The translations under genes and the position numbers were made by a program. Below the pieces are notes generated by a model. It did no database searches, was not told the origin of the DNA, and saw only the letters and a list, made by a program, of their open reading frames with translations. This document shows positions 439 to 18,501 of a stretch of DNA of 18,501 bases, in pieces. Source of the DNA: a candidate division WOR-3 bacterium (lineage in GTDB: Bacteria; Hydrothermota; Tepidihabitantia; Tepidihabitantales; Tepidihabitantaceae). The stretch spans positions 1 through 18,501 of the forward strand of contig JAUWNN010000029.1 in assembly GCA_030612625.1 (NCBI GenBank), in the 5' to 3' direction. The first letter of the stretch is position 1. The number at the start of each line of letters is the position of its first letter.

Positions 439-1929
439 ATGAGAATACTCCTTATTTATCCTCAGTACCCAGACACCTTCTGGGGTTTCAAGCATGCCCT
501 GAAATTCGTCTTCAAGAAGGCAGCCAGCCCGCCCCTGGGGTTATTGACCGTCGCGGCGATGCTTCCGAAAGAGTGGGAGAAAAAACTGGTAGACATGAAT
601 GTAGCCACACTGACGGACAAGGACCTTGAATGGGCTGACTTCGCTTTTATCAGTGCTATGTCTGTCCAAAAGGCGTCGGTGAAAAAAGTGATCAGCAGGT
701 GCAAAAGGACCGGCGTCAAAATTGTGGCCGGCGGCCCCCTTTTCACGACCGGATATGACGAATTCAAAGGTGTGGACCATTTTGTGCTCAATGAAGCTGA
801 AATCACACTGCCCCCATTCCTGGAAGATTTGAGAAACGGTCATCCCAAGCATGTTTACACATCCGGCAAATGGGCTGATATAACGAGGACGCCGGTCCCA
901 CTCTGGGAACTTGCCGGCATGAAAAACTATGCTACGATGAGTATTCAGTATTCAAGGGGTTGTCCTTTCAATTGCGAATTCTGTGATATCGGGGTGCTTT
1001 ACGGTCATAAGGTGCGAACAAAGAACAAAGACCAAATATTAGTCGAACTTGAAAGCCTGTACCTCCAGGGTTGGAGAGATGGGGTATTCTTTGTCGATGA
1101 CAACTTCATAGGAAACAGGAGAAAGCTGAAAACGGAAATTCTGCCCGCCATAATCGAATGGTCGAAGAAGAAAAAATACCCGTTTTCCTTCAATACCGAG
1201 ACATCTATCGACCTCGCCGACGACGAGGAACTCATGCAGTTGATGACAAAGGCAGGGTTTGCTACGGTATTCGTCGGCATTGAAACCCCGAACGAAGACA
1301 GTCTGGCCGAATGCAATAAGCTCCAGAACAAGAACCGCGACCTGGCCGCTTCGGTCAGAAAGATACAAAAGTTCGGTTTGCAGGTGCAGGGAGGATTTAT
1401 TGTCGGGTTTGACAGCGACCCGGTCACCATTTTTGAAAGGCAGATCAGGTTCATCCAAAAGACCGGAATCGTTACTGCAATGGTTGGGCTTCTAAATGCT
1501 CCTCGGGGCACGAGGCTTCACCATCGTCTTGAAAAAGAGAATAGACTGCTGAAGGATATTTCTGGCGACAATACAGACTGCTCGATCAACTTCATTCCCA
1601 AAATGGACTACAACACGCTTATCAACGGCTACAAGAAAATTCTTTCTACGATTTATTCTCCCGGCTATTATTATGAACGGGTCAGGAAGTTTCTGAAGGG
1701 ATATAAGCCCCCCAAAAAGAGGGCGTCCCGATTCCATTTCAGCCAATTCGGCACATTTTCCAAAACTAACCTATATTTGGGCATAATCGGAAAGGAAAGG
1801 TTTCATTACTGGAAACTCTTTTTCTGGTCCTTGTTCAGGCGTCCGCGACTTCTCCCACTGGCAATAACCTTTGCAATATACGGATTCCATTTTCGGAAAA
1901 CCGTTGAGCAATACCTGCTGGATATCTAA
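439..1929 (+). CDS. B12-binding domain radical SAM protein (class B rSAM, DUF4070-type)
   Basis: 496-aa ORF. N-terminus MRILLIYPQYPDTFWGFK and LGLLTVAAMLP / VKIVAGGP resemble a cobalamin-binding domain. Canonical radical-SAM cluster motif CxxxCxxC (CPFNCEFC). GC about 46% versus about 60% for the rest of the window. Confidence 0.85.
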   Translation: MRILLIYPQYPDTFWGFKHALKFVFKKAASPPLGLLTVAAMLPKEWEKKLVDMNVATLTDKDLEWADFAFISAMSVQKASVKKVISRCKRTGVKIVAGGPLFTTGYDEFKGVDHFVLNEAEITLPPFLEDLRNGHPKHVYTSGKWADITRTPVPLWELAGMKNYATMSIQYSRGCPFNCEFCDIGVLYGHKVRTKNKDQILVELESLYLQGWRDGVFFVDDNFIGNRRKLKTEILPAIIEWSKKKKYPFSFNTETSIDLADDEELMQLMTKAGFATVFVGIETPNEDSLAECNKLQNKNRDLAASVRKIQKFGLQVQGGFIVGFDSDPVTIFERQIRFIQKTGIVTAMVGLLNAPRGTRLHHRLEKENRLLKDISGDNTDCSINFIPKMDYNTLINGYKKILSTIYSPGYYYERVRKFLKGYKPPKKRASRFHFSQFGTFSKTNLYLGIIGKERFHYWKLFFWSLFRRPRLLPLAITFAIYGFHFRKTVEQYLLDI

Positions 1930-2460
1930 GAAAAACCTAGTCCTGCTGCCCGACTATCGCCGGCCCGAGATGCAGGGCCGATACCCGTTCCTCGGGCCGG
2001 AATGCTCGGAGCCGGCGGCCAAGTAGCCATAAAGTCTCTGATGTGAATCGAGGGCGGCCGCAAGGCCGCCTTCGCTCTCGGGCAAGAGAGGGTGGGCGGT
2101 CAGCGGCAGGCGGTCAACTGAAGCGGCCTCGAGCCGGTGCCGGAGATGCCGGAGGCGATCAGCGGCTCCCGCCGTTCAGTCTTCAGGATTGCCCCGCTCG
2201 CGCTGTGAGCTGTTGACGGTGAACTGTCAGTGGATTGCGGCGCGCGGAGATAGGTATTGTGTCCCCCTATCTCTCAGGTTCTTCGACGGCCTGGCTGAGG
2301 TGTTCATCGGTTGCCGCATTCGCATCCTGCCCGGGCTGTGGGAAGGTAGGCAGGTGGCCCACCTTGAAGGCGGGCACAGCGGCTACATCAACCGGTCAGG
2401 AAAGATGGTCTGGGAGCCGAGGGAGTAGCAAACCCGGACAGAACCCAACTTGGCTTGCCC

Positions 2461-3351
2461 TCACTGGCCATCGAGTTCGGCACGCAGCGAATCAACGACT
2501 GCGCCGAAGCCTCCACGGTAGCCACCTGAAGTCGGGTGGCTGGCCTTGATGAAGGCTATCACATCTCCGTCCTCTTCGTGTCTGAAGTGGACGATTGAAC
2601 CGTCAAGCCTTGGCATGCTCTGCGGGTCAAAGTTGATGGTCCATTCGTCATTGGTCCAAGGGTGGATGTGTCTTCCGGGGACGCCGCGAGCGGCCCGGTA
2701 GATCCAGTTCGTCCAAGGCCAGCCGAAGCATACCACGGCTCTCGGTCTGAAAAGCGTTACCAGCTCAAAGGACTTGCGACCGCAGTTGTCCAGTTCAGCC
2801 GCGCTTGGCATACCGGTGCGAGGTGGCGTTTTGCAGTGAGAAGCGTTCAGCGCAACGACGCTGCCAAGGTAACCTTGCTCGCATGCGTGAGCGAACCCTG
2901 GATGATTCGGAACCACATGCACGTTATTTCCCAGAAGGTCTCGCCGGTCGCCTGCGGCCAGTAGGATGCCCAGAGCAGCTCCGGTGACGCTGTCTTCGTA
3001 CCAGCCAGCTTCTATCTTGTCGACTCCGGGTTCAGCTTCGTGGTCATACCAATGAAGGTGACGGTTTGCGTATGTTGCATCGTCTGGGTCCTCGCCAACG
3101 TGCCAGCAACCTGCGTCATGCAGACCCCCGAGACCTGGGTTGATGCCGACGAAGAATATATCCTTCCGGCCTCCCGCTGGCGAGTGTGGTTCGCCGTAGA
3201 TGGCCTCGGGAATGTACTCTGGCAGATCTAGTCTGAGGTGCTGTCGCTGGCGCATTAGCGCCCTGCACTCTCCGCCGACCCAGCAAGGGCACTCTCGTCG
3301 GAACCAGCGGTACAGGACCTTCTCTTCGTGCGTCAGGTCGTCCCAGTTCAC
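2461..3351 (-). CDS. uracil-DNA glycosylase superfamily protein, MUG/TDG-like (GINPGL motif), Cys-rich N-terminus
   Basis: 296-aa ORF with GTG start. Preceded by AGGAGG plus a 5-nt spacer (rc of 3353-3360). Motif A FFVGINPGLGG matches the family-2 UDG GINPGL signature. A later VVPNHPG resembles the motif-B HPS/NPSG region. Several Cys (CPCWVGGEC...) may form a metal or Fe-S site. Assignment rests on motifs only. Confidence 0.5.
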   Translation of the reverse strand: MNWDDLTHEEKVLYRWFRRECPCWVGGECRALMRQRQHLRLDLPEYIPEAIYGEPHSPAGGRKDIFFVGINPGLGGLHDAGCWHVGEDPDDATYANRHLHWYDHEAEPGVDKIEAGWYEDSVTGAALGILLAAGDRRDLLGNNVHVVPNHPGFAHACEQGYLGSVVALNASHCKTPPRTGMPSAAELDNCGRKSFELVTLFRPRAVVCFGWPWTNWIYRAARGVPGRHIHPWTNDEWTINFDPQSMPRLDGSIVHFRHEEDGDVIAFIKASHPTSGGYRGGFGAVVDSLRAELDGQ

Positions 3352-3441
3352 CGATACCTCCTTTGGTATAGATGCACGGCCGAGTATCGCTCAGGCAGGG
3401 GCGGAGTCAATAGGCTCAACGCGCTACGGGTTGTCCGTTGG

Positions 3442-4689
3442 TTACAGCGCGTGGGGACTGCCGTCTTCGAGCAGCACGGTCTGGCCGAACGCCTCGGCGA
3501 AGGCCTGGGGGTGCTCGGTGTGGATTGGGAATAGCTGGGCGGGTTTCAGCGTGCCGATGACCCGCTTGAGCAGGCCGAACGGCGCGTGGCCCGAGACGTG
3601 CCGGATTTCGAACTCGACGCTCTCACGCCCGCACCAGCCCTTCAAGCTCTTGAGATGGCGGTCGAGGTACCCGGGCCACATCGAGTAAATGAGCCGGGCG
3701 TCGTGCAACAGCCCGTGCTTCTTGATTTCGGCCTGCATGTTGGGCCGGAACAGCATTACCGATTTCCCTCGGCCCGTGCGCAGGGCTTCCTCGTAGATGC
3801 GTCGGCCGTAGTACGGGCCGGCGAGGGCAGCGTTGCCCGCATCACACAGCCTTGAGCGCATCCCCCAGGGAAGGTAGATGCGAAGGTCACTTCTCCTTGG
3901 GCTGGGCAGCTTCTTGCGGCCAGCCTGCCGGAGAGCCCGCAGTAGTTCCGCGGTATACAGGTCAATGACCATCGTTCGTCCGGCCCGCTTGGTCGCCTTG
4001 TAGAACGTCACGAACCGGTCGATGTTCTGGGCAGCGTAGAACGCGAGGACCAGCCCGGTTGCGCTGCGGATGCGCTCGACCAGCTCGTTCTCAAGCTGCT
4101 TCTCGGTCTTCGCGGGATGGTCGGCATCTGACCTGCCGGCGGTCGTGCCCTCGATGACCAGGGCTTCCAGCGGTCTCGGGCAGTCCCTGAGCAGGCGAGG
4201 CAGAGCTCCGGGCTTGCGGCCGTGGTCGCGCAGGTCGCCGGTATAGAGCAGGCGCTTGCCGCCGCATTCGACGAGCAGGGCGTGGGCGTCGTAGGCCGAG
4301 TGGTCGACGAGGAAGGGTGTGATGCGGAACGGGCCGACTTTGAAGAGCTGGTAGCTTTCGTAGGGCACGGCCTGCTTAGGCACGCGAACGGGCATGAACG
4401 GTTCGGCTGCCTTGAGCATCAGGAGTGACTCGCGGCCAAGGAAGACCGGGACGGTGTCGGCCAAGTGGTTCCACAGCCCGTAATGGTCAGCGTGGGAGTG
4501 GGAAACGACTACCCCGAGCAACTCACCGGCTTTCGGTGTCAGGTTGAGCGAGGCGGGGAGGTTCGGCTGCTCGCCCTTCCTCAGGTCCAACGGCGCACCA
4601 ATGTCGAGCAGGATGCGTTGATCGCCAGTGGCTAACTCAACGCAGTTGCCACCGACCTGCCGCGCGCCGCGGTGGATGGTGAGGCGCAT
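3442..4689 (-). CDS. beta-CASP family MBL-fold nuclease (RNase J / TTHA0252 / Artemis-like)
   Basis: HxHxDH motif SHSHADHYG. N-terminus MRLTIHRGARQVGGNCVELATGDQRILLDIG matches the beta-CASP N-terminal pattern (M.I...GGAREVGGS...LLDCG). The longest ORF starts at 4719 (MASRKGLGSR-), so the start could be 4719 or 4689. TAA stop at 3442-3444. Confidence 0.75.
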   Translation of the reverse strand: MRLTIHRGARQVGGNCVELATGDQRILLDIGAPLDLRKGEQPNLPASLNLTPKAGELLGVVVSHSHADHYGLWNHLADTVPVFLGRESLLMLKAAEPFMPVRVPKQAVPYESYQLFKVGPFRITPFLVDHSAYDAHALLVECGGKRLLYTGDLRDHGRKPGALPRLLRDCPRPLEALVIEGTTAGRSDADHPAKTEKQLENELVERIRSATGLVLAFYAAQNIDRFVTFYKATKRAGRTMVIDLYTAELLRALRQAGRKKLPSPRRSDLRIYLPWGMRSRLCDAGNAALAGPYYGRRIYEEALRTGRGKSVMLFRPNMQAEIKKHGLLHDARLIYSMWPGYLDRHLKSLKGWCGRESVEFEIRHVSGHAPFGLLKRVIGTLKPAQLFPIHTEHPQAFAEAFGQTVLLEDGSPHAL

Positions 4690-4697
4690 CCGGCTGC

Positions 4698-5612
4698 CTA
4701 AGCCCTTCCGCGAAGCCATTTGTCTCTGAGTGTGCTGGGTTTGATTCCTGCCGGGTCCTTTATCATCGGCGTCAGGCGGCCGGACATCTCGCTGCCGTAG
4801 CGGACCATCATCTCGTTGATGTGCCGCTTCACCTTCAGTTCGGCTCCTCTGCTACCGTACTCGAACACGAAGAGTCCGACGCGCCTGTCAATTGCTGTTG
4901 GTTCAGGGAGGCTTTGGCCAAACAGCGAGTTCATGGTGCGAACGTATTTGCCATACTGAGAGAGTATCCGACGGTAGTTCTTGTCGAGTTGGCTGTCATA
5001 GCGCTGCAACTGCCATATCACGCCGTGCGGTTTCGCATCGAATGCTCTCAGTCGTGGGTCATCCCAGCGCTTTGCCTCGAAGAAGGTCAGTCTCTGGTTT
5101 CGCTTGTCGAGAAGGACGAAGTCAATGGCGTCCCGTGAGGCAGCCCTGTCGCTGAAGGTCACCTCGATGTCCAGAACGACAACATCGCTCTCGATGTCGC
5201 TGGCGTGGGAGTATGTCCACATGGCCGAGAGACCGCCACGCTCGCGTGTTCTGTGGAGATCAACGTTACCCTTTATGGCCTCGTATCCATCAACGAAGCT
5301 CTCGAATGGCTCTATCGTGCCCATCTTCTTTTCTGTGACGTAGTCAGGGTCACGAGGTTGCCTCTTGGCTGCGAAAGCGAACTTCACGTTGGTCAGGAAT
5401 TCCCCGCTAGGCAGGTAGCCGAACAACTTCTGGCCAGCGTAGTAGAAACTCACCTGGGATCCTCTGCCTCTTATCGTTGGTAGCACAACGCCCCGCTTGA
5501 TGTCACCCAGCAGACGGTCTTCGAATAGCGGCTCCCTCTTCAGGGTTTCGACTTGCCCATCCGCCAACTCCCGGCTGAATGTCGGCGTCGATCTTCCCTT
5601 CGACGTACCCAC
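4698..5612 (-). CDS. PD-(D/E)xK-like nuclease-fold hypothetical protein
   Basis: 304 aa, from GTG at 5612-5610 to TAG at 4700-4698. The GTG overlaps the upstream TAG stop by 1 nt (TAGTG). Preceded by AAGGAG 7 nt upstream. Candidate catalytic core VLLD-x11-FFEAK (hhhD...ExK). The 597-aa ORF in the track (4698..6491) is this gene fused to an out-of-frame Arg-rich shadow of the upstream gene. Confidence 0.6.
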   Translation of the reverse strand: MGTSKGRSTPTFSRELADGQVETLKREPLFEDRLLGDIKRGVVLPTIRGRGSQVSFYYAGQKLFGYLPSGEFLTNVKFAFAAKRQPRDPDYVTEKKMGTIEPFESFVDGYEAIKGNVDLHRTRERGGLSAMWTYSHASDIESDVVVLDIEVTFSDRAASRDAIDFVLLDKRNQRLTFFEAKRWDDPRLRAFDAKPHGVIWQLQRYDSQLDKNYRRILSQYGKYVRTMNSLFGQSLPEPTAIDRRVGLFVFEYGSRGAELKVKRHINEMMVRYGSEMSGRLTPMIKDPAGIKPSTLRDKWLRGRA

Positions 5613-7027
5613 TAGCAACTCCTTTCGTCTACAACCCCGCCCAGCCATCCCATCACCGCCCAGGTGGCTTCGAGGTCTTCTCGGTTGTAGAGCATTATCT
5701 TGTCCATTGTCTCCTTCCTCAAGTCTTCGTCCTCGGTTTCGACCGCCTTGATGTACTCGGCCATTGACCATGCGCCGTTGGATTCGGGCAGGGTGCGCTG
5801 ATACCCTGCGCGCTTCTCGACCAGCTTGATGCTGTAGCTCGGGTCCGGCAGGACCACCGCTTTCTTTGTGATAGGCAGCAGGTCGCAGAGGTTCTTGAGT
5901 ACACGCACGCCGACGCCGGCCGGGTCGCCGAACCGCTCGATGTACTTCCTGACGTGGGTCTTCTCGTACGGCGCCCAGTGCACGAACGGGATGTCGCCGA
6001 GGCAGGCGAAGATCCCGGCCGCGTTGTCGAGGAACTGCATCCAACCGTTCCTGTCGCCATCCGCCCCGAAGTCCGCGACGGCCTGGAGGCAGGGCTTCGG
6101 GTTCACGCCAAAGACCTGCGTGCCCCAGAGGTATATCTTCTCGGTCTCGTTCAACTGCGGCGGGAGGCCTTCGAGGTCGAACATCACGTAGTTGTCGCTG
6201 GCCGGGATTCCGGGCCGCGACAGCACGATGACTTCGCCGGTCGTGAAGGCGCGGGCGTGGTTGAGTATCGAGGTCGCCTTTGACCCGACCCTCTGCATGC
6301 GCGTCCCAACCGGCCGCTTCAGTTCGCTCAGGGCGTCCTTCGTGAACCGTGATGGAAGGTCCCGGTAGCTCCCAATGCCCATCTCGCGGAATGCGCTTGC
6401 GGTTCCCTGGTCCACATCGGGCAGCACCGCCGGGTCCTCGGATGCTACGGCCTTGAGCCAGCAGTGGTCCCAGTAGGCGCAACCGCCGCACTTGGACCAG
6501 CCGACCGGGATGTAGTCGGACAGGCCGTTGTCGAGGACCGCCTGCATGCGTTCGAGGGTCGCCAGTGCCTGGCGACCCTGGTCGTAGGGCAGCGGTACGA
6601 TATCACCGGTTCCGGCCACTACTTCGATTCCGGCCGGCGGATGGCCGAAGGTGGATTCGTACAACCAGCCGTACAAGTCCAACTGCTCGAGGATCTCCTC
6701 GTGCTCGCTGACGCGCCGCGCCACCTTGCAGTCACGCACGCGGTAGCCGTCGCCGTAGCGTACAAGGAAATCGGGCACGCCGACGATGGTCACGTCCGGG
6801 GAAAACGGGGCATTTGCGGTCAGGAGCGGCTGGTACAGAACCGGCGTGCTACTACGCACTGCGTCCCGGGTTGCTTCGCTCCGTTCCTGGAACGGGACCC
6901 TGGAAAGGTCGGTTACGTCCGTGAGTGTCGCAAGGTAGGCGGCCTCGTGCCTGTTGCCGAGTGCCTTGAGTACCTGGTCAAATGCACCGGGCTCGGCTTC
7001 TGCGAGCCCCAGCCGTCTGCAGTCCAC
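5612..7027 (-). CDS. TM0106-family putative RecB/Cas4-like nuclease (PD-(D/E)xK + Fe-S Cys + C-terminal RNase H-like domain)
   Basis: 471 aa, GTG start. N-terminal Cys (MDC...) plus a C-x2-C-x5-C cluster (CGGCAYWDHC) as in Cas4. PDFL...RDCK...EQLDLY (D, DxK, QxxxY) RecB-family motifs. C-terminal VMFDLEG...YNREDLE consistent with an RNase H-like exonuclease fold. Overall architecture matches the TM0106 family (TIGR03491) from memory. Confidence 0.75.
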   Translation of the reverse strand: MDCRRLGLAEAEPGAFDQVLKALGNRHEAAYLATLTDVTDLSRVPFQERSEATRDAVRSSTPVLYQPLLTANAPFSPDVTIVGVPDFLVRYGDGYRVRDCKVARRVSEHEEILEQLDLYGWLYESTFGHPPAGIEVVAGTGDIVPLPYDQGRQALATLERMQAVLDNGLSDYIPVGWSKCGGCAYWDHCWLKAVASEDPAVLPDVDQGTASAFREMGIGSYRDLPSRFTKDALSELKRPVGTRMQRVGSKATSILNHARAFTTGEVIVLSRPGIPASDNYVMFDLEGLPPQLNETEKIYLWGTQVFGVNPKPCLQAVADFGADGDRNGWMQFLDNAAGIFACLGDIPFVHWAPYEKTHVRKYIERFGDPAGVGVRVLKNLCDLLPITKKAVVLPDPSYSIKLVEKRAGYQRTLPESNGAWSMAEYIKAVETEDEDLRKETMDKIMLYNREDLEATWAVMGWLGGVVDERSC

Positions 7028-7102
7028 CCGACGGATGCACTCGCTGGGGTTGTAGTAGAAGGCCAGGTCAGAGGCCGAAAGCTGTTTTATGCAGTTTTCC
7101 GT

Positions 7103-7153
7103 CTAGCGGTTCACGTTCAGCAGCGGGGTCAGCTTCTGGTCGAAGGGCATCAT
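7103..7153. repeat. R1: direct repeat copy of the SPFH gene 3-prime end (pseudo-terminus ending TAG)
   Basis: Minus-sense ATGATGCCCTTCGACCAGAAGCTGACCCCGCTGCTGAACGTGAACCGCTAG encodes MMPFDQKLTPLLNVNR*. One mismatch to R2 over the 45-nt core. 34/36 identity to the authentic gene end R3. Confidence 0.9.
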
Positions 7154-7252
7154 TGGCATCGGTAACGCTAACCGCTTTTCTCGGCATGGGTGCTTGGGCA
7201 ACACCAGTGGTTTTCCAACAGCCGAGGGCGGATTTTCCTTCACCATGCCTTA

Positions 7253-7280
7253 TTCCTACCCGAATCCGGGTGAGTGTCAA
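7253..7280 (-). promoter_or_regulatory. M1 promoter module: TTGACA-N16-TAGGAA(T), 6 nt upstream of a 47-aa ORF that ends in R1
   Basis: Minus-sense gcTTGACActcacccggattcgggTAGGAAtaaggcATG. The spacer carries CCCGG/CCGGG half-sites. Homologous to M2 and M3. Confidence 0.5.
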
Positions 7281-7316
7281 GCGGGGCAGCTTGAACCGGG
7301 AGTACGCCGTTGGCGG

Positions 7317-8981
7317 TCAGCGATGCGCGGCGTGGATTGAGTTGAACCTCGCAACGGCCCGTGTGACCTCCGGGCTCGCCCTGGTGAAGCGTTCACCGTG
7401 ACGTGCTCGTCTGACCAGTCCTCTGAATGTCCTTATTACGTGTTCCTTCTCTTCTGACGAGACCCAGAAGGGGTAAGGAAGTCGCTCGAAGTCCTTGCTT
7501 TGGATATTCTTGGTGTGGTTGATGACTTGCTTCAGGATTCTTGAGCACAAGGGTGTGAGCGTCCATCCCAGTATGAAGTACGACTCATCCTCGGCGATAC
7601 CCTCACGCAGGAAGGCACAGGGTGCTCCACTGTCCAGAACATAGCCTTCAGGTAGATACTTCACGTTCAGTCTTGGCGCGATCAACTGCCAGGTCAGCCC
7701 GCTACGCTTGAAGTAGCGCTGTCCTCCTACGCCGTGCAAGTACCAATTGCCATTCTTCTTGAAGGTCAATACTGCGTCGCCATCATCTTTCCAGTATATC
7801 GCATAGGATGGAGGAGCATATACGATGCCGTTCGTCGCCTTGTTGTAGTAGCTGTAATCCGGATGCGGGAGCTTGACGGTCTTCGGTGTCTTCCGAGCGA
7901 CTATCCTGACGTTGCGCTTGGTGGCGCCAACCGCTTCGAGCCGCCTTATTTCCATCGTCTTCCCGGGCGAGAGCTTTCCCAGTCTTGCTCTCGCCAGTTC
8001 TTTCTTCAGGGTGACGGGGTCCTCGTAGTACTCGAACCGGTAGGGTTCGCTGACTGCTTCGTTTTCGATGCGGCGGACGAAATACTCGTTCTTGCCGACC
8101 GTCATTCCACTTGTCGCAACCACATACTGGGCCAGGCGCGGGCCTTGGAAGTACCCGGTCAGTTCCGGCGTGATGCGCCAAGACAGGTTGTCGGTAAGCT
8201 CGATTGTATCTGAGCCAATCCGCTGTCCGTTTATCTCAACGGCAGCGGCTTTCCCATTCTTGCGGAAATCCAGGACAATCGTCGGCTGCTGGGTTTCCTC
8301 AGAGAATTCGGCGAGGTCTTTGATTGACGTCTCGCCATAGTCCATGAGCAGCCGCCGCAAGCCGCGCATGGTTCTTATTGTCAGGAACGTATCGGAGCAG
8401 ATAAACCGCAGCACACCGTTATCCCTCAGGAGGTCCAGGCACTTCACAATGAAGAACGAGTACGTTTCCTTCTTGATTTTCTCTCCGTTTCTGAACCCGT
8501 ACTTCCGGTCAAGCAAATCCTGGATGTCGGGGTCGAGAGTGCCGCCAAACGGAGGGTTGCCCACAATGTAACTGAAGCCAGGAGTCGGACCGCTCTGCCA
8601 GTCCAGTTGGCGTTCGACGGACGTCCCGCCGAGCGAGCTGCGGAAAAAATCGCCGAGCTCGAAGTTGTGATATTCCGGTATCGGTCCCCACCGAGATTCT
8701 ATTCTGGCCAGGCACTTCGCGTACAGTTGTCTGTCGATTTCAACCCCGAAGACATTCCTGCCGAGTACCTCAGCCAACCGTTGGTTTGTACTGCCGGTAT
8801 ACAGGGGCAGGAAGCTTTCAATCAGAGGAATCACGAACGAACCGTCGCCCATGCTGGGTTCCAGTACCCTGTCGGAGCGTCTGAAATGCAGGTCTGAAAG
8901 GAGCTGCCTGGCGAGAGGCTCAGGCGTCATGAACTGGCCAAGCTGGCGCTTCCGGGGTCTTCTGGTCTTGGTTTCGCTCAC
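7317..8981 (-). CDS. N6-adenine DNA methyltransferase, gamma-class (Eco57I/TaqI-like) with C-terminal target-recognition region
   Basis: 554 aa. Motif X QFMTPEP, motif I LEPSMGDGSF, GVEID, motif IV YIVGNPPFGG, in the gamma-class order. The GTG start overlaps the stop of the upstream ORF (GTGA). Confidence 0.85.
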   Translation of the reverse strand: MSETKTRRPRKRQLGQFMTPEPLARQLLSDLHFRRSDRVLEPSMGDGSFVIPLIESFLPLYTGSTNQRLAEVLGRNVFGVEIDRQLYAKCLARIESRWGPIPEYHNFELGDFFRSSLGGTSVERQLDWQSGPTPGFSYIVGNPPFGGTLDPDIQDLLDRKYGFRNGEKIKKETYSFFIVKCLDLLRDNGVLRFICSDTFLTIRTMRGLRRLLMDYGETSIKDLAEFSEETQQPTIVLDFRKNGKAAAVEINGQRIGSDTIELTDNLSWRITPELTGYFQGPRLAQYVVATSGMTVGKNEYFVRRIENEAVSEPYRFEYYEDPVTLKKELARARLGKLSPGKTMEIRRLEAVGATKRNVRIVARKTPKTVKLPHPDYSYYNKATNGIVYAPPSYAIYWKDDGDAVLTFKKNGNWYLHGVGGQRYFKRSGLTWQLIAPRLNVKYLPEGYVLDSGAPCAFLREGIAEDESYFILGWTLTPLCSRILKQVINHTKNIQSKDFERLPYPFWVSSEEKEHVIRTFRGLVRRARHGERFTRASPEVTRAVARFNSIHAAHR

Positions 8982-9685
8982 CTTAGATTCAGTGGGTTCT
9001 GCGTATCAGCAGTTACCTTGCGCCGGGAACTCTTGAGGTACCGGGAGATATCCTTATGGAATCGGGCAAGTGATTCCGCACGGTTGGCGGCCAGGCGTTT
9101 GTTTCCATCCTCCAGCATCGCGTAGAGTTGTTTTACCTTGCGCCTGATGGCTAGTGTTGGGGGTGATGTCCCTTTGGCCATCGCGTCATAGAAGGCGTTG
9201 GCTTTGAGCATTATCTGACCGGGACCGGAGTCAAACGTCATGTAGGAAAGGTAGTCCAGCAAGTCGAGAAAGTAGACCCTGCACGTGATTTCCCTGGTGA
9301 TGTCCATCTTGACCATCAGCAGGTAGTAGGAATCAATCTGGTAGCCTAGGAGTGCCCGCAGCAGCTTCTTCAAAGAGACCATGTTCGGCTGCCCACCTGT
9401 CGTGGTTACGCCCGCCTTGACGTTGACCGGATGGTAGATACCGCCGCACTCCAACCAGAGATCCCCCATGGAGCGCATCCGCCGCTGGCCCCTGCTATCG
9501 CACTGGTGTTTGGTTACATACTTCACGGTCAGCAAAGCAGTAGTTTTCTCGTCCACGAGGTCGGCGATTCGGTGTCCGATTTCCTTGCCTTGTGCGATCT
9601 CGCGGAAGTACCTTTTGCGTACTTCACTGTCCCAGTAGGCCTGGGTATCCCTGCGGATTCGCTTGGCGGTCCTGGCGTCTATCAT
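8978..9685 (-). CDS. putative restriction endonuclease partner (hypothetical 235-aa protein)
   Basis: Translationally coupled (GTGA overlap) immediately upstream of the MTase. Driven by the M2 promoter. No recognisable family motif, so the call rests on gene context only. Confidence 0.4.
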   Translation of the reverse strand: MIDARTAKRIRRDTQAYWDSEVRKRYFREIAQGKEIGHRIADLVDEKTTALLTVKYVTKHQCDSRGQRRMRSMGDLWLECGGIYHPVNVKAGVTTTGGQPNMVSLKKLLRALLGYQIDSYYLLMVKMDITREITCRVYFLDLLDYLSYMTFDSGPGQIMLKANAFYDAMAKGTSPPTLAIRRKVKQLYAMLEDGNKRLAANRAESLARFHKDISRYLKSSRRKVTADTQNPLNLR

Positions 9686-9694
9686 CTTGCTTTG

Positions 9695-9723
9695 TTTCTA
9701 CCCGATTCCCGGATAGGTGTCAA
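9695..9723 (-). promoter_or_regulatory. M2 promoter module: TTGACA-N17-TAGAAA, 9 nt upstream of the REase ATG
   Basis: Minus-sense ccgcTTGACAcctatccgggaatcgggTAGAAAcaaagcaagATG. Leaderless-like geometry. Confidence 0.55.
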
Positions 9724-9746
9724 GCGGAGCGGTCCGCGCAACGCGG

Positions 9747-9804
9747 TCAGCGGTTCACGTTCAGCAGCGGGGTCAGTTTCTGGTCGAAGGGCATTATCAC
9801 GAGG
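9747..9804. repeat. R2: direct repeat copy of the SPFH gene 3-prime end (pseudo-terminus ending TGA)
   Basis: Minus-sense GTGATAATGCCCTTCGACCAGAAACTGACCCCGCTGCTGAACGTGAACCGCTGA encodes VIMPFDQKLTPLLNVNR*. Homology to R3 extends through tatcacga. Confidence 0.9.
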
Positions 9805-9820
9805 AAAACCAGAGACGCTT

Positions 9821-9849
9821 TCCATATTCCTGAGTCCCGAGTCTGTCAA
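9821..9849 (-). promoter_or_regulatory. M3: degenerate third copy of the promoter module (TTGACA-N17-TATGGA) just upstream of R2
   Basis: Minus-sense caTTGACAgactcgggactcaggaaTATGGA. The spacer is similar to M1/M2 (cggga.tc.gg). Confidence 0.35.
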
Positions 9850-10068
9850 TGGTTGGCCGGACGCGAGATGGTGTCCGTGCCTTTCCTGCTGCATCAGGCA
9901 GTTGTAGCGGAGAAGGGGGTGGAAGTCAAGGAGAGAAGGAAAGGATTCAAGGGGTCGAGTGCGCAGAGGGCTGACGGCTCCAGGATGTACGGGACGGCCC
10001 TCCGGCATTCCCCGAGTTGACGAGGTGTGGAAGGTCCAGTGGTCAGGTGAGGGAAAGCGGCAGGCAGA

Positions 10069-11202
10069 CTAGCGGGACGGACGCGGGTCTGGAGGCAGGC
10101 CGGGTTTGATTTCGGAGTAGCGGGTGATGGCGAGGTCTGCGAGGCGGCGAATGAGCTCGGCGGGCTGGTGCCTTGCCACGAGCCGGCTGGCTTCGGCTTC
10201 AACCAGTGCCCGGCGTTCTGTCGAGTCTGGTGCTGAGTGGTCCACGATGTAGCAGGTTTGGCGGACAAGGCCAAGGTACAGCACCTGCTCGCCGGCCGGC
10301 ACCCCAGCCGCGACCGCTTCTCTCTGGACTTCTTCCCATACCTTGGCGATGGCCGCCTCGCGGGCGACCTGGTGCTCCTGGAGCTTTTCCAGCCATTCGC
10401 GGTGCAGCCGGTCTTCGGCCCGCTCAGGCTTGGGCTGCAGTTCGGCCACGGCCGGCAGTTCGTCGAGTTTGCCGGTCATCTCCAGCCGCCGGTGCAGTTC
10501 AATGACCGCGGCCGCTACTTTGTCGAGCGCGGTTTCGGATACGACATTCTCGGCCAGGAGCTTTGAGCGGGCCTGGCTGAGCAATTCCGGCTGTTTGTCC
10601 CGGTCCTTCTTGCGCGTGCGGTTGAGTATGCCCCAGAGTTTGCGGCCGAAGTCGGCAAGGTACTTGCGCTTTGTCCCTGAACCTTCGTCGCCCAGTTGCT
10701 TGATTGTGAAGAAGAGGACCTCTTCGAGCCGGCGGCGCTGAAGCAGCGAGGCGGCGAACTTCTGGGAGCGCCGGATTCTCTTGTCCGGCTCTTCGACCGG
10801 CCGGGCATCGAACCGGCCGGCAACGGTCGTCTTCACGTCGTAGCGGTTCACCTTGTCGGCTATCGGCTTGGGCAGGTTCCTGGTCATGCGTTCGACCACC
10901 TGTCTGGCGGCCTCTTCGATGACCGGCTTGCGGCTGGTGTACGATGCAAGCACGTCAACGACTTCCTCGATTCCGGCCCGGCAGGAGCGGAGGTAGTCGA
11001 GCAGGAAGCAGAGCCTGGGGTTCGGGTTCTTGCCGGCTTCGAGCCGGGCAATCTGCACCCGGGTCGTTTCCGGCCTGCGGCCCATGAGCCGGGCAATCTC
11101 TTTCTGGGTCAGGCCGGCTCGTTTGCGCAGGCCACGCAGGCGCTCGCCAAGCTGACGCCGGAACAGCTTGTCAATCTCACTGGAAGATGCGTCAGAGACC
11201 AT
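10069..11202 (-). CDS. XRE-family helix-turn-helix protein with large charged, coiled-coil-like C-terminal region of unknown function
   Basis: N-terminal LGERLRGLRKRAGLTQKEIARLMGRRPETTRVQIARLEAG is a Cro/C1-type HTH. Start taken at ATG 11202 (MVSDASSSEIDKLF); the longest ORF extends to 11265. C-terminal roughly 280 aa is Arg/Glu-rich with no recognisable domain. Confidence 0.65.
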   Translation of the reverse strand: MVSDASSSEIDKLFRRQLGERLRGLRKRAGLTQKEIARLMGRRPETTRVQIARLEAGKNPNPRLCFLLDYLRSCRAGIEEVVDVLASYTSRKPVIEEAARQVVERMTRNLPKPIADKVNRYDVKTTVAGRFDARPVEEPDKRIRRSQKFAASLLQRRRLEEVLFFTIKQLGDEGSGTKRKYLADFGRKLWGILNRTRKKDRDKQPELLSQARSKLLAENVVSETALDKVAAAVIELHRRLEMTGKLDELPAVAELQPKPERAEDRLHREWLEKLQEHQVAREAAIAKVWEEVQREAVAAGVPAGEQVLYLGLVRQTCYIVDHSAPDSTERRALVEAEASRLVARHQPAELIRRLADLAITRYSEIKPGLPPDPRPSR

Positions 11203-11323
11203 GGCCTGGGTAATTCTAGAGTTACATTGGACTGATGGCAACAGTCGGGGATAACAGCCGGACATTCAGGCGGTTGTGCGAAACCGGGCCGAAATACCTC
11301 TCCAGCCCCCTGGGTGGCTTCCG

Positions 11324-11546
11324 AGATGAAATCCGATTGGACTTCGAAATGGACTTCGAGGCAGAATTCGAGAAGGAGTTTGAAACAGACATCGCACTGC
11401 ACTTTTCCTGACACCTTGAGATGGACGTGGAAACGGACAATGTCCTGGGCAGCGCAGGACACGATTGAAGGCACGTTGTTCTACACAGGAAGAAAGACAG
11501 CGAACGCCAGTTCGAAAGACAGTCCTGAAGGCAGTTCGAAGCAGAC
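11324..11546. repeat. degenerate 12-nt periodic repeats with TTCGAR cores (GANTTCGANNNN x5, plus two 15-nt CAGTTCGAARCAGAC copies)
   Basis: ggacttcgaaat / ggacttcgaggc / agaattcgagaa / ggagtttgaaac / agacatcgcact at 11339-11398. cagttcgaaagacag and cagttcgaagcagac at about 11508-11546. Lower GC than surroundings. Sits in the 560-nt gap between the SPFH gene end and the HTH gene. Confidence 0.6.
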
Positions 11547-11765
11547 CTTGCGCCTGAATTTGAACTAGAGCTTCCAAAGGATGTTGAGCGTGACTTCAGA
11601 CGAAGTGTGAGCGAACTTGGGACACGAGAGAAGAGGGAGAAAGGAACAGGGAGGCTTGGGACACAATCCCAAAGGGAACTGTTTCGAGCGTAGCACCCGA
11701 GCGGAATCAGGCTATGTCCCGGGTCCAGGCCGGTCCGCGGCGATGCCAGAGTAACGAGGCTGGGA

Positions 11766-12674
11766 TTACCTCACATTCAGCAGCGGTGTCAGCTTCTGGT
11801 CGAAGGGCATTATCACGAAAGTGCTGTTCTGGCTGTCCGCGACATTTCTGAGCGCCTTGACATAGAACCAGGTCAGGTAGTTCCGGGTTAAAGAGACAGC
11901 GATGAGCCGGTTTGCGTCCGCAATACCCCGGGCTTCAATCCGCTTTCTCTCGGCTTCTTTTGTTTCCTTGGCCAGGGTGAACTCCATCTTCTGGGCATTC
12001 TGGTCCTCGGCCAGCTTCGACTCGATGGCGTTCATCACGACGTCAGGCAGTTTGACCCGGCGCAGGAGCATCCGCTCCCGGATGACGCCCTTGCCGGTAA
12101 ACGCGACATCCATCATCGAATCGACGACTGTGGTGTAGGCGGCCCGGCCGTCGGATGAGTAAAGTTCGCTTGCGGTGAACCGCGAAGCGGCGTCGCGGAG
12201 CGCGGTCCGGATTGATGGCCGGACAATCTTCTCAACATAGTTGGGCCCGATGTTCTTGTACACCCAGCTTGCCATCTGCTCGTCGAGCCGGTACCAGACG
12301 GTGACGTCGAGGGTCACGGTGAGTCCGTTCGACGCGAGCGCATCGATCGCGTCGTCACCCCTGATTTGTCCTTCTTCGCGCATGCTCGACATGGTGTAGG
12401 CGTTGGTGCGGACGTCCATGAGCACGACGTTGACAATCGGGACTACGATGTTGAGTCCGCTCTGCATCTGGTTCTGGACTTTACCCAGAAGCACCGGGAC
12501 CCCGGCATGGCCGGGCGGGACGATCCGGAAGAACGAAATCCCGAACAGGATTGCCAGGACGACAATTGCGATGATGCCGGCACGCTTGGCATAAAGCCGG
12601 CCTTTGCCGCTTTGCCTGACTGCGACATAAGCGATTATCGCGATAATGGTCAGGATGACTATCAGTCCAAACAT
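11766..12674 (-). CDS. SPFH/band-7 (prohibitin/HflK-like) membrane protein
   Basis: 302 aa. Two N-terminal hydrophobic segments, then an SPFH core (FFRIVPPGHAGVPVLLGKV...). Strong SD aaaaGGAGGtaagATG. The C-terminus ...IMPFDQKLTPLLNVR* (R3, 11766..11824) is the sequence duplicated at R1 and R2. Confidence 0.85.
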   Translation of the reverse strand: MFGLIVILTIIAIIAYVAVRQSGKGRLYAKRAGIIAIVVLAILFGISFFRIVPPGHAGVPVLLGKVQNQMQSGLNIVVPIVNVVLMDVRTNAYTMSSMREEGQIRGDDAIDALASNGLTVTLDVTVWYRLDEQMASWVYKNIGPNYVEKIVRPSIRTALRDAASRFTASELYSSDGRAAYTTVVDSMMDVAFTGKGVIRERMLLRRVKLPDVVMNAIESKLAEDQNAQKMEFTLAKETKEAERKRIEARGIADANRLIAVSLTRNYLTWFYVKALRNVADSQNSTFVIMPFDQKLTPLLNVR

Positions 12675-12741
12675 CTTACCTCCTTTTGGCGGTCATTTGA
12701 ACGCTCTACGCACGACGCATAACGCTTGACGCTAGCCTCCG

Positions 12742-12778
12742 GCGTAGTGCGTAATGCATAAAGCGTAGTGCGTAATGC
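12742..12778. promoter_or_regulatory. two 16-bp direct repeats (GCGTAGTGCGTAATGC) 21 bp apart, between a TTGACA -35 (rc of 12785-12790) and the SPFH start
   Basis: Exact 16-mer at 12742-12757 and 12763-12778. Positioned where the -10 and operator of the SPFH promoter would lie. Confidence 0.4.
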
Positions 12779-12822
12779 GTCTTGTGTCAACTGTCAGGAG
12801 AAAAGCCTGGGATGACCACCGG

Positions 12823-13659
12823 CTACCACACCTTGCCTGTTGAGTGTATCTGCCAGGTGTTGTTCCGGCGTTCAAGGTAGAATCGGATGCCGCGACGGCG
12901 GCCGATTGGGTCCGGGTGGCGCGGGTCGACCGGTTCCAGGTCGATGACGCAGATAGCGAACTCACCCAACACCCGCACCAGTCCGAATCGGAAAAAGAAC
13001 CGGACATCGGGTCTCAGGCTGTCGCTACGCAACTCGGACAGAGTGAGCATAGTGATAGTGTGGTTCCCGAGGCGGAAGGTTCCTTTGTGACTCAGTTCCT
13101 TGCCTACTACCGTAATTGTATCGGGCAATGTGAGACGGCGATGGATTCGTGCGAGACCGGCTGGCGTAATAACGTGGCCGAGTGCGGCTTCAGCCACCGC
13201 TTCGAGTTCAACCATATCGGCACGGCCATATTGGAAGGACTGGTTGAAGATGTTGGAAAGCCACATCAACTGCCAGCCGTCGTCGGTATGGAGCCAGCTC
13301 TGGTACACATAGGCATAGTCGAACTTATTCTCGAAAACGACCCAGGTTGATACATTGCCGCCCATTCCGCGAATGTCCACAACTCTACTGCGTGCCTGGG
13401 TGATGCGGCGGTCCGTGTACCAGGCTGAAAGCGCCGAGTCGAACCGGCTGAATCGTATCTCAGACCGGAATGCAGGCACAAACATCCGGTAGAGTTCCCT
13501 GGTCCTGCCGGCTACCAGTGCTTCAGTGAATTCCTGGGAGCACCGGTCGAGCTGATAATAGGTTTTGGGTTTGGCCGCGCCAGCCGCTAGCGGCCAACAG
13601 CCAATTACCAACAGCCAGCGACCGACCGCCAGCGGCCCACGGCTATAACCATTCAGCAC
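12823..13659 (-). CDS. hypothetical lipoprotein-like or secreted protein
   Basis: 278-aa ORF with lipobox-like LLVIGC near the N-terminus. The annotated GTG start at 13659 lies only 4 nt from the tRNA-Asp 3-prime end, so the true start is probably internal (TTG at codon 17 or ATG at codon 59). Confidence 0.45.
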   Translation of the reverse strand: MLNGYSRGPLAVGRWLLVIGCWPLAAGAAKPKTYYQLDRCSQEFTEALVAGRTRELYRMFVPAFRSEIRFSRFDSALSAWYTDRRITQARSRVVDIRGMGGNVSTWVVFENKFDYAYVYQSWLHTDDGWQLMWLSNIFNQSFQYGRADMVELEAVAEAALGHVITPAGLARIHRRLTLPDTITVVGKELSHKGTFRLGNHTITMLTLSELRSDSLRPDVRFFFRFGLVRVLGEFAICVIDLEPVDPRHPDPIGRRRGIRFYLERRNNTWQIHSTGKVW

Positions 13660-13663
13660 TCAG

Positions 13664-13739
13664 CGGGCCCGACCAGATTTGAACTGGCGATCTTCTGCGT
13701 GACAGGCAGATGTGTTAAACCAAGCTACACTACAGGCCC
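13664..13739 (-). tRNA. tRNA-Asp (anticodon GTC)
   Basis: 76-nt cloverleaf folded by hand. Acceptor GGGCCTG/CGGGCCC. D-stem GTGT/ACAC. Anticodon stem TCTGC/GCAGA with loop CTGTCAC (U33, GTC, A37). 5-nt variable loop. T-stem GCCAG/CTGGT with loop TTCAAAT. Discriminator G. No encoded CCA. Confidence 0.85.
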
Positions 13740-13747
13740 AATATGCA

Positions 13748-13775
13748 ATGATATTTGGGTGTCACCGAATGTCAA
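13748..13775 (-). promoter_or_regulatory. tRNA-Asp promoter, TTGACA-N16-TATCAT, about 8 nt before the tRNA 5-prime end
   Basis: Minus-sense TTGACAttcggtgacacccaaaTATCATtgcatatt then GGGCC... Confidence 0.6.
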
Positions 13776-13808
13776 CCGGCGCGTGGCTTGCATCTTGCCA
13801 GCCGGGCG

Positions 13809-13837
13809 TTGACATCCGCTTTATCGCCTTCTAGAAT
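13809..13837 (+). promoter_or_regulatory. promoter TTGACA-N17-TAGAAT, 6 nt upstream of the SBBP gene ATG (leaderless-like)
   Basis: gTTGACAtccgctttatcgccttcTAGAATcggccgATG. Divergent from the tRNA promoter. Confidence 0.6.
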
Positions 13838-13843
13838 CGGCCG

Positions 13844-15241
13844 ATGTCCCTGATTTGCCTGATGTTGTGTTTAATCGGAGGCGGGCCGGAGCTGGTGCAC
13901 TCTGTTACTTACGACGGACCGGAAAGCCTTGAGGACAAATGCACCGGTATGGTTGTTGGCAAGGACGGCTCGGTTTATCTGACCGGTTACAGCATGGGCA
14001 GAGAAACCGATTTCGATTTCGCCACAGTTAAAGTGGATACGTCAGGCGGAATTGTGTGGGTGAGGCGCTATGGAGCGCCGCTCGGATGCGAGGACCGGCC
14101 GTGGTGCCTGGCGATGGATTCGGCCGGCCGAGTAATTGCCGCCGGCGGTTCGATTGCTGACTACAAACAAGGCTGGGACTATCTTGTGGTAAAGCATCAT
14201 CCCAACGGCGATACAGCCTGGCTGCGTCGGCTGGACTTCCCACACCATGCTGATGATAAGCCGGCTGGAGTTGCGATTGGTCCGGGCGATTACATTCTTG
14301 TGACCGGCCGGAGCCGCCGGCAGGATGACACCTTGCGCGGCCCAAGGGTGTCACCCTTGCGGCACTGGGACATTGCTACGGTCAAGTACACGCCGGAGGG
14401 CGAGACGGCTTGGACCCGGAGATTTGACAGCCCGGTACACAAGGATGATTTCGGCACCGGGGTCGCGGTTGACGCTCGCGGCAACTGCTATGTTGCGGGC
14501 CGGACAACAGTGAAGCCGGTCGGTACACACATTCTGCTATTGAAATACAGCCCTGAGGGTGAGCTCGTCTGGCAGCGCACACTGAGCGGTGAAGGTCCGG
14601 GTAACAGCATTGCCAATGGAGTCCTGCTCGATTGTGCCTTACGGCACTCTTCGCTACGCTCTGATACGGCTGGCCGCGCTTATCTGTTCGGTGCGGTCTA
14701 TAACAAAGGTTCGTCGTTTGATTACATCGCCGCCTGTTTCAGTTCAAGCGGCGAGAAAGTGTGGTCACACACCCATGACGGCGCGGGCAGCGTTGATATG
14801 GCCCAGGCCGCCTGCTTCGATTCGGAAGGCAACAGCGTAGTCACCGGCCAGTCAACAGGCAAGGGTTCGTCATTTGATATCCTGACCATCAAGTACTCAC
14901 CGCAGGGCGAAACAGTCTGGACACGGCGGTACAACGGGCCGGCGAATTCAGCAGACCGGGGCTGGTGCATCACTACCGACCTTGAGGGCAATATCATTAT
15001 CGGCGGCACTTCGACAGGTGTGACCGGATTTCCCGACCTGATTATGGTCTGCTACTCGAAGGCGGGTGAGACGCTCTGGACCTACACTTACTCGGGCGGG
15101 GGCTCGGGCGAAACAAGGCCGGTGGCCCTAAGATGGGATGAAAGGCCGGGAAAGCCTGGAAGGCTCCTGGTTGGCGGATTCGCTAAGACCCTCGAGACCG
15201 GCTTCGATTTTCTTCTGCTCTGGCTCGAGCCGGGCAACTGA
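13844..15241 (+). CDS. SBBP-type beta-propeller repeat protein (secreted, hypothetical)
   Basis: 465 aa with seven or eight tandem repeats of about 45-50 aa, pattern G.hYhTG...DhhThKY.P.G..hW.R.Y.G, as in the SBBP repeat (PF06739). Hydrophobic N-terminus. Confidence 0.7.
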   Translation: MSLICLMLCLIGGGPELVHSVTYDGPESLEDKCTGMVVGKDGSVYLTGYSMGRETDFDFATVKVDTSGGIVWVRRYGAPLGCEDRPWCLAMDSAGRVIAAGGSIADYKQGWDYLVVKHHPNGDTAWLRRLDFPHHADDKPAGVAIGPGDYILVTGRSRRQDDTLRGPRVSPLRHWDIATVKYTPEGETAWTRRFDSPVHKDDFGTGVAVDARGNCYVAGRTTVKPVGTHILLLKYSPEGELVWQRTLSGEGPGNSIANGVLLDCALRHSSLRSDTAGRAYLFGAVYNKGSSFDYIAACFSSSGEKVWSHTHDGAGSVDMAQAACFDSEGNSVVTGQSTGKGSSFDILTIKYSPQGETVWTRRYNGPANSADRGWCITTDLEGNIIIGGTSTGVTGFPDLIMVCYSKAGETLWTYTYSGGGSGETRPVALRWDERPGKPGRLLVGGFAKTLETGFDFLLLWLEPGN

Positions 15242-18496: not shown

Positions 18497-18501
18497 ACTT
18501 C

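Follow-up and report, generated by a model that had tools for sequence, protein, structure and literature searches.

Restriction-modification (R-M) units can be inserted into a chromosome with long duplication of the target sequence (Nobusato et al. 2000, Gene 259:99; Furuta, Abe and Kobayashi 2010, NAR 38:2428, PMC2853133). Such insertions have been recognised by homologues of a modification and a restriction gene, a size below 20 kb, the absence of linked mobility genes, direct repeats of more than 30 bp and an empty site in a relative (PMC2853133). The repeats often span the start or stop codon of a flanking gene, leaving the genes intact (PMC2853133). 

Here, a comparable arrangement is described in an 18,501-nucleotide (nt) stretch of DNA from a candidate division WOR-3 bacterium (assembly GCA_030612625.1, contig JAUWNN010000029.1, positions 1 to 18,501; from now on referred to as the window). 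In this stretch, the 3' end of an SPFH/Band 7 gene recurs as a short repeat, R, and a promoter module, M, recurs close to the boundaries of the genes that lie between the repeats. The original prediction for this locus was that gene end and promoter together represent a recombination site carrying an outward promoter. The analysis presented below argues that M is probably an ordinary resident promoter that was copied together with the SPFH gene end when foreign genes were inserted with long target duplication.

Copies of an SPFH gene end form an array

All features of the array lie on the minus strand and their order is given in that direction. The SPFH gene, ending in R3, is followed by an insert of about 1.97 kb with an HTH_31 regulator gene, by R2, a spacer and promoter module M2, by a putative restriction endonuclease (REase) gene and a DNA methyltransferase (MTase) gene, by the sequence CGCTGA, a spacer and module M1, by a remnant of an LVIVD-repeat gene fused to R1 and finally by a nuclease gene (Table 1). 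The three copies of R are located at 7105-7153 (R1), 9749-9797 (R2) and 11765-11813 (R3). R3 represents the in-frame 3' end (last 15 codons) of the SPFH gene, and thus its working end, while R1 and R2 are orphan copies.

The homologues of the SPFH protein come from candidate division WOR-3. R1 and R2 encode MPFDQKLTPLLNVNR (...NVNR), which is the C-terminus of the nearest of these homologues (P0002, P0003, P0004 and P0006, all 303 amino acids (aa)). R3, unlike these nearest relatives, ends in ...NVR* (302 aa) and resembles more distant 302-aa lineages such as L023 and L021. R2 is a hybrid whose left part is like R3 and whose right part is identical to R1. The direct repeat formed by R3 and R2 extends over about 53 nt and that formed by R2 and R1 over 49 nt (47 of 49 positions identical, 96%). 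A further direct repeat consists of two copies of the segment running from a stop codon to the promoter, which share a 10-nt identity and a 43-nt core.

Two homologous promoter modules

Three homologous modules, M1, M2 and M3, had originally been proposed next to the copies of R. Exact matches to TTGACA-N15-18-TAGRAW occur three times in the window, compared with 0.01 expected by chance, and correspond to M1, M2 and the promoter of the SBBP gene. M1 and M2 are homologous, and each finds its best match in the window in the other. The best local match of the M2 unit (67 nt following R2) in the whole window is M1, with 43 nt at about 77% identity; the score of 39 was reached by 0 of 500 shuffles (mean 23.8, standard deviation 2.3, maximum 33). 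This match runs from GC(T/C)CCGCTTGACAC to just 5' of the ATG. In addition, CGCTGACCGC is identical at the stop codons of R2 and of the MTase gene, the latter of which sits in CGC TGA CCGC just as at the end of R2, and a 13-nt indel lies between CGCTGACCGC and the 43-nt core. The predicted similarity between the sequences after R2 and after the MTase stop is borne out.

M3 does not belong to this group. AGGAAT follows its TTGACA after only 12 nt, the hexamer at 17 nt is TATGGA and there is no TAGRAW match. No significant similarity was detected to M1 (46/500 shuffles as good) or M2 (317/500). Similarly, the proposal that the module travels with the boundaries of R applies to R2 and M2 and to one orphan copy, Rb, in the related genome described below, but the shuffle comparison identified nothing M-like in the flanks after R3 and after R1.

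Considered as sigma-70-type promoters, M1 and M2 fit in their -35 elements and spacing, while their -10 hexamers, TAGGAA and TAGAAA, end in A at position 6 and lack the terminal T of TAnnnT. A standard sigma-70 scan requires this T, so neither promoter is called. The short distances reported between -10 and start codon are correct: in M1 the -10 is followed by TAAGGC and the ATG at 7246 (6 nt), and in M2 by CAAAGCAAG and the ATG of the putative REase gene at 9685 (9 nt). The SBBP gene does have the same geometry, with TAGAAT located 6 nt before the ATG at 13844; its promoter is an ordinary WOR-3 promoter unrelated to M.

The spacers had also been read as near-palindromic operators or recombinase-binding sites, which the sequences do not bear out. 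The arms measure 5 bp in M1 (ACCCG/CGGGT), 3 bp in M2 and 4 bp in the module of the related genome, and are thus weak and not conserved. The R-spacer-M units fold no better than shuffled sequences (z = -0.23, 0.38 and 0.23), with no structured RNA, attC-like fold or terminator, and an Rfam search returned only a tRNA-Asp.

A related genome suggests the origin of the module

A 46-kb contig, L002, derived from the sample of run SRR22302353, encodes an SPFH protein 90% identical to that of the window. The order of features in L002 is: the SPFH gene, a 325-aa gene, an orphan R at 12003-12050 (Rb), a spacer of 19 nt, CCGCTTGACACCCGCCCGGGTTCGGGTAGGGT, 5 nt and an intact 370-aa LVIVD-repeat gene. The promoter module in this contig, whose orthologous -10 is TAGGGT, was compared with M1 and with M2, and 0/500 shuffles were as good in either case; it is closest to M1 (27/30 positions). 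The first 28 residues encoded by ORF47, the small open reading frame (ORF) behind M1, align with the N-terminus of the L002 LVIVD protein (14/28 identical, E = 2e-6). M1 and the L002 module thus both head an LVIVD gene or its remnant, which argues that M is the resident promoter of a gene natively located next to SPFH. The repeat in L002 (Ra/Rb) comprises R plus about 34 nt past the stop codon (1/500 shuffles as good), and any extension beyond that was not significant. The orphan copy is the foreign-looking one in this genome (IPMLD).

Based on this comparison, R-spacer-M appears to be a native junction made up of the SPFH stop codon, an intergenic spacer of 56-61 nt and the LVIVD promoter, and to represent the target side of an insertion. 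The unit of gene end plus promoter, roughly 100 nt in length, does recur at cassette boundaries as originally described, and is also found next to the inserted gene in L002. Its interpretation as a recombination site with an outward promoter was not supported, given that the unit corresponds to resident chromosome in the comparison with L002 and that M1 still stands on the first 28 LVIVD codons.

Orphan copies of R were found only in the genome of the window (two) and in that of L002 (one), with none at about 44 other SPFH loci. The M module is likewise confined to these two genomes and is absent from 41 SPFH loci of other genomes. A metagenome scan with the loose pattern GCTTGACAC-N12-16-CGGGTAG returned 120 loci, none of which aligned to the unit beyond the pattern itself, and these are regarded as chance matches. 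A degenerate R pattern had 0 matches in 2.9 million viral contigs; plasmids and other collections were not searched for R. The gene downstream of SPFH differs per lineage and can encode a fumarate reductase flavoprotein, an ABC transporter, an M14 peptidase, an S8 peptidase, a DUF488 protein or an LVIVD protein, and the genes downstream of SPFH in the window were not found near SPFH in any other genome examined. As judged from these gene orders, the position downstream of SPFH behaves as a variable hot spot.

Promoter architecture across WOR-3

Promoters of leaderless mRNAs in Deinococcus and Actinobacteria are of the sigma-70 type and have a start codon some 7 nt behind the -10. The starts behind M1 and M2 had been described as leaderless-like, and a promoter survey using the pattern TTGACN-N16-18-TANNNT was carried out over 18 WOR-3 loci (window, L002, L004, L008, L010-L025). 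Of 71 matching sites, 41 lay within 60 nt of the start of an ORF of 80 aa or more, and in 28 of these 41 the start codon lies 5-10 nt after the -10. The geometry is therefore present, as claimed, but not special to the module. Among the 30 matches with a start within 12 nt of the -10, TAG-type hexamers (TAGAAT, TAGACT, TAGGAT) are found in 15, and CGGG(C/T) directly precedes the -10 in 10.

A short gap between -10 and ATG, a TAG-type -10 and CGGG in the spacer are accordingly general features of promoters in the clade and not marks of a special module, and the survey suggests that leaderless mRNAs are common in WOR-3. A full-text literature search returned no paper naming both WOR-3 and leaderless. 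The likeness to known leaderless promoters consists of TTGACA, a 16-18 nt spacer, a TAnnnT-like -10 and an ATG or GTG 5-10 nt downstream. A difference is that the -10 hexamers of M1 and M2 finish in A where the others have T. The survey offers a first view of WOR-3 promoters, which combine TTGACA and a spacer of 16-18 nt with a TAGAAT-like -10 that the start codon follows after 5-10 nt.

Proposed insertion with long target duplication

We hypothesize, with a probability of roughly 60%, that M is an ordinary resident promoter copied together with the SPFH gene end during insertion of foreign genes with long target duplication. M would be the sigma-70-type promoter of the LVIVD gene following SPFH, located 5-10 nt before the start codon and probably giving rise to a leaderless mRNA. 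The SPFH 3' end and the intergenic promoter, together about 130 nt, would form an insertion hot spot which horizontally acquired genes without mobility genes of their own entered with long target duplications of variable length (49-82 nt). Target duplication would result in copies of R and M at the cassette boundaries. Staggered breakage with fill-in and Campbell-type insertion of circularised DNA from a related lineage are candidate mechanisms for the duplication.

The R-M pair illustrates how such an insertion may have worked. Its DNA extends from at most 12 nt before the REase ATG through the MTase stop, and lies between two copies of the segment that runs from the SPFH stop through the spacer and promoter to the LVIVD start. 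Flanked in this way, the pair has no promoter of its own and lies directly behind M2, which could drive it as a leaderless transcript. Expression may be weak, as the -10 TAGAAA lacks the terminal T. M1 with ORF47 and the 15-codon ORF of R2 would be non-functional scars. A duplicated target that holds a complete leaderless-type promoter would allow a promoterless methylase/restriction pair to arrive wired for expression while the neighbouring genes keep their signals.

Compared with the features by which R-M insertions have been recognised, the insert is small, measuring 2369 nt from the ATG at 9685 to the stop at 7317 and 2595 nt between R2 and R1 (2.4-2.6 kb), and no mobility gene was found among the 20 ORFs of the window. 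The repeats are those given above, 49 nt with 47/49 identical positions for R2/R1 and 10 nt plus 43 nt for the stop-spacer-promoter copies. An empty site is seen in L002 only, where orphan R, spacer, M and LVIVD gene occur without the R-M pair; no empty site was found for the R2/R1 pair. The modification gene is present, and the restriction gene would be the 235-aa ORF that overlaps it by 4 nt and has no family match. This ORF had no match in Pfam, NCBIfam, PADLOC, PHROGs, PDB or plasmids, and a single-sequence AlphaFold model was unusable (pLDDT 36) and not used. Homologues of the methylase are at most 64% identical, are scattered over many phyla and have variable C-terminal tails; the gene next door in one relative bears no relation to the 235-aa ORF. 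These homologues pointed to no donor of the R-M pair, and their tails are too variable to tell a native CGC-TGA end from a fusion.

Several observations weigh against this explanation. The left edges of all three orphan copies (R1, R2 and Rb of L002) lie at -10 to 0 nt from the Met288 codon, which is not predicted by random target duplication and keeps a site-specific mechanism under consideration; the right edges vary (+43, +47 and +82). The native arrangement is drawn from one comparison genome, L002, orphan copies occur in only two genomes, and a search for other native arrangements via homologues of the LVIVD gene gave a next-best match only 31% identical. Identity is about 77%, with a 13-nt indel, between M1 and M2 but 96% between R1 and R2, from which it follows that the two duplications differ in age or that M2 comes from another lineage. 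M1 is also closer to the L002 module than to M2, which is not what a recent duplication within the genome predicts. Lastly, the REase is assigned by context only.

Alternative explanations

The window is a metagenome-assembled contig with three repeat copies, and a chimera of strains joined at the 49-nt repeat would produce such a contig. The assembly was checked against independently assembled Logan contigs of run SRR12623518, which is derived from the same sample. These match at 100% identity over 14816-9833, 9862-8146 and 8149-5887, and their breaks at 9833-9862 and near 8146-8149 might be taken as a sign of an artefact. However, each point at which an orphan repeat meets non-SPFH DNA lies inside one of these contigs, including M3 region/R2/M2/REase and MTase/M1/ORF47/R1/nuclease (the latter in contig L174), and an unrelated assembly of a second sample (L002/L003/L009) has this architecture too. 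With the junctions borne out, an assembly chimera was rejected and is considered extremely improbable. The model originally proposed, in which R and M form a mobile boundary unit with an outward promoter and a recombinase or the cassette 2 HTH protein binds the spacer, can draw on the recurrence of R-spacer-M at one boundary in the window (R2-M2) and one in L002 (Rb-M), as well as on the placement of M2 for expression of the cargo genes. It is difficult to reconcile with the absence of M after R3 and R1, with the lack of homology of M3 and with the fact that, in both genomes, one copy of M is attached to the same chromosomal gene or its remnant. The spacer palindromes are weak and differ between copies, CGGG precedes the -10 in 10/30 unrelated WOR-3 promoters, no recombinase was found in the ORFs of the window, and the module was detected nowhere else, including the 41 SPFH loci and the metagenomes with their chance pattern matches. 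We thus regard a mobile unit as decidedly improbable.

Site-specific integration is unlikely as well, but deserves more weight. Here, the last 15-17 SPFH codons would serve as attB for small integrative elements inserted successively, their integrase being encoded elsewhere or lost. Each element would have supplied a new gene end (R3, ...NVR*), pushing the older ends, R2 followed by the original R1, rightward, and M would be resident flank; M thus represents resident chromosome under either model. The sharp left boundary combined with the variable right boundaries is what an attP identity block restoring the 3' end of the gene would generate, R3 carries an end different from that of the nearest relatives and similar to that of L023 and L021, and R2 is a hybrid of R3-like and R1-identical parts. 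The repeats are thus copies of the SPFH 3' end with R3 differing from R1 and R2, as expected of an integrative element, while in L002 it is the orphan copy that looks foreign. Set against this, no integrase, transposase or recombinase domain was found in the 20 window ORFs or, in L002, among the called genes up to 10 kb away from SPFH in either direction, and no end sequence is common to the cassettes. In the R units there are no inverted repeats, folding is no stronger than in shuffled sequences and there is no sign of constraint at the DNA level, identity in R at all positions and at third codon positions not being unusual compared with the rest of the SPFH gene. Neither the viral contigs nor the roughly 44 other SPFH loci yielded further copies, and the duplication around the R-M pair, from stop codon to promoter, has other boundaries that do not fit the same site. 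Any specific recombination site would, as the shared edge suggests, lie at the left edge of R, at SPFH codons ~286-288, and not in the promoter spacer. The feature with real upside is that three independent orphan copies start at the same SPFH codon. An improbable extension is that the SPFH 3' end, with crossover at about codons 286-288, is the attachment site of an undescribed integrase-less cassette-capture system in WOR-3. A recombinase acting in trans or a site-specific break would then successively insert defence or regulatory cassettes of one or two genes, each event regenerating the gene end and handing a copy of the leaderless promoter to promoterless cargo, and the system would be functionally integron-like with a host gene end plus promoter as its boundary unit.

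Two further candidates were tried and rejected. A Xer/dif-like core at the left edge of R matched, by eye, 5/11 positions of the XerC arm and had no XerD arm. Retro-insertion of leaderless transcripts, which would explain boundaries at ATG codons, was dismissed, there being no properly spaced promoter upstream of the internal SPFH ATG and the right-hand boundaries being unlike transcript ends.

Inserted genes and other features of the locus

The coordinates of all features are collected in Table 1. The regulator gene in cassette 2 more likely starts at the ATG at 11202 (377 aa) than at 11265 (398 aa), in view of a promoter-like sequence ending 10 nt before the former and of an independent 377-aa gene call in L001 that uses it.

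Table 1. Positions of the genes, repeats and promoters of the SPFH locus, numbered along the window.
Feature	Position	Strand	Description
SPFH/Band 7 (prohibitin-family) gene	11766..12674	minus	302 aa; Pfam PF01145, E = 6e-26; ends ...MPFDQKLTPLLNVR*
Inserted segment (cassette 2)	9805..11765	minus	holds the HTH_31 regulator gene and about 500 nt of non-coding DNA upstream of it
Promoter of the HTH regulator gene	11241-11213	minus	TTGCCA-17-TAGAAT
HTH_31 regulator gene	10069-11265	minus	Pfam HTH_31, E = 1e-9; PHROGs transcriptional repressor families
M3	9821..9849 (9849->9821)	minus	TTGACA without a properly spaced -10
R2	9747..9804	minus	orphan SPFH 3' end; CGTGATA + ATG...CGC TGA
Intergenic copy 2	9686..9746	minus	contains M2
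M2 promoter	9723->9695	minus	TTGACA-17-TAGAAA; -35 at 9723-9718, -10 at 9700-9695
Putative restriction endonuclease gene	8978..9685	minus	235 aa; label from context only (4-nt overlap with the methylase gene)
N6-adenine DNA methyltransferase gene (Eco57I/N6_Mtase type)	7317..8981	minus	554 aa; Pfam Eco57I and N6_Mtase; PADLOC MTase_II
Intergenic copy 1	7247..7316	minus	contains M1
M1 promoter	7280->7253	minus	TTGACA-16-TAGGAA; -35 at 7280-7275, -10 at 7258-7253
ORF47	7103..7246	minus	47 codons; the first 28 are an LVIVD 5' remnant that switches in frame into R1 (7105-7153)
TM0106-family RecB-like nuclease gene	5612..7090	minus	NCBIfam TIGR03491, E = 1e-37; start 12 nt beyond the R1 stop; bounds the array on its right-hand side
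SBBP gene promoter	13809-13837	plus	TTGACA-17-TAGAAT; 6 nt before ATG 13844

The SPFH gene itself has a classical Shine-Dalgarno sequence (AAAGGAGGTAAGATG at 12674). Upstream of it, a tRNA-Asp(GTC) gene is located at 13663-13739 on the minus strand with its own promoter (TTGACA-16-TATCAT, 13775-13748), back-to-back with the SBBP promoter. In L002, too, tRNA-Asp is paired with a protein of about 270 aa.

Two Logan contigs end on M3 at 9833-9862 (minus) with an exact 30-nt overlap (k-1), the 30-mer CCGGCCAACCATTGACAGACTCGGGACTCA. The overlap points to more than one sequence context for the 30-mer in this sample, owing to strain variation or to a second copy.

At the right-hand flank of the array, an ATA codon (7090-7088) occupies the expected start of the nuclease gene (IKQLSASDL...), and a canonical start is not reached until the GTG at 7027, 21 codons inside the conserved N-terminus. 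Mutation of the start, use of a non-canonical start or a sequencing error could account for the ATA. The nuclease frame continues that of the R1 ORF, interrupted only by the TAG stop of the latter. Two long ORFs on the minus strand, 4698-6491 and 5612-7027, overlap by about 880 nt in different frames. Domain matches extend along the whole length of the nuclease frame, and of the other ORF only the part downstream of about 5612 is probably real (304 aa, no family match). Comparison of window positions 1-2000 with 2000-7000 shows a jump in GC content, from 0.45-0.50 over a B12-binding radical SAM/DUF4070 gene (439-1929, plus strand) to 0.60-0.65 over a block consisting of a UDG-like gene, a beta-CASP MBL gene, a gene without an assigned family and the TM0106 nuclease gene. 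No other SPFH locus is syntenic with this block, which may itself have been acquired.

The 325-aa protein of L002 (11007-11984) has no family match. It contains a D...E-F-K stretch (ADLACLIWNEDLQKYELWIYEFKPS) that resembles the PD-(D/E)XK nuclease motif, and could be the product of a defence gene. Near the SPFH gene of L002, at 2192-3983 and 15129-16024, HicA/HicB, two MNT/HepT pairs and a BrnA-like antitoxin are encoded. This richness in toxin-antitoxin genes fits a variable, island-like region on both sides.

Comparison with known systems

Integron cassette arrays resemble the locus in that small cassettes of one or two genes with defence-type cargo lie beside a fixed chromosomal point. They differ in that no IntI integrase and no attC hairpins (z ~0) were found here, that the boundaries are copies of a host gene end, and that expression would depend on duplicated or own promoters and not on a single Pc. 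Genomic islands or integrative elements that target the 3' end of a tRNA or protein-coding gene and build up in tandem resemble the locus in their direct repeats corresponding to the 3' end of the target gene, a working copy that differs from the displaced ones, a sharp left boundary and tandem copies. In contrast to such islands, no integrase, no conserved element ends and no free attP (in the viral contigs) were found, and the elements measure 1-2.6 kb with one or two genes.

The best description of the locus would be that of the insertions reported by Furuta and colleagues. Here too, a small insert with a methylase and an adjacent putative restriction gene is found without mobility genes, and repeats of more than 30 bp that are single at the empty site of a relative span a stop codon and the next start, so that the neighbouring genes keep their signals. 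Unlike in those cases, the same target of about 130 nt appears to have been reused and duplicated, three or more times in the window and once in L002, resulting in a nested array. The cargo includes non-R-M genes, namely the HTH regulator and the 325-aa protein; the duplicated target holds a whole promoter, acquired by a promoterless R-M pair; the repeat copies are unequally diverged (96% versus 77%); and the host is an uncultured WOR-3 bacterium. The finding identifies a variable hot spot downstream of SPFH in WOR-3 genomes and would extend a little-understood route of gene acquisition, by long target duplication without mobility genes, to an uncultured phylum. In this phylum, the locus is probably a known kind of insertion scar and not a new mobile promoter or recombination device.

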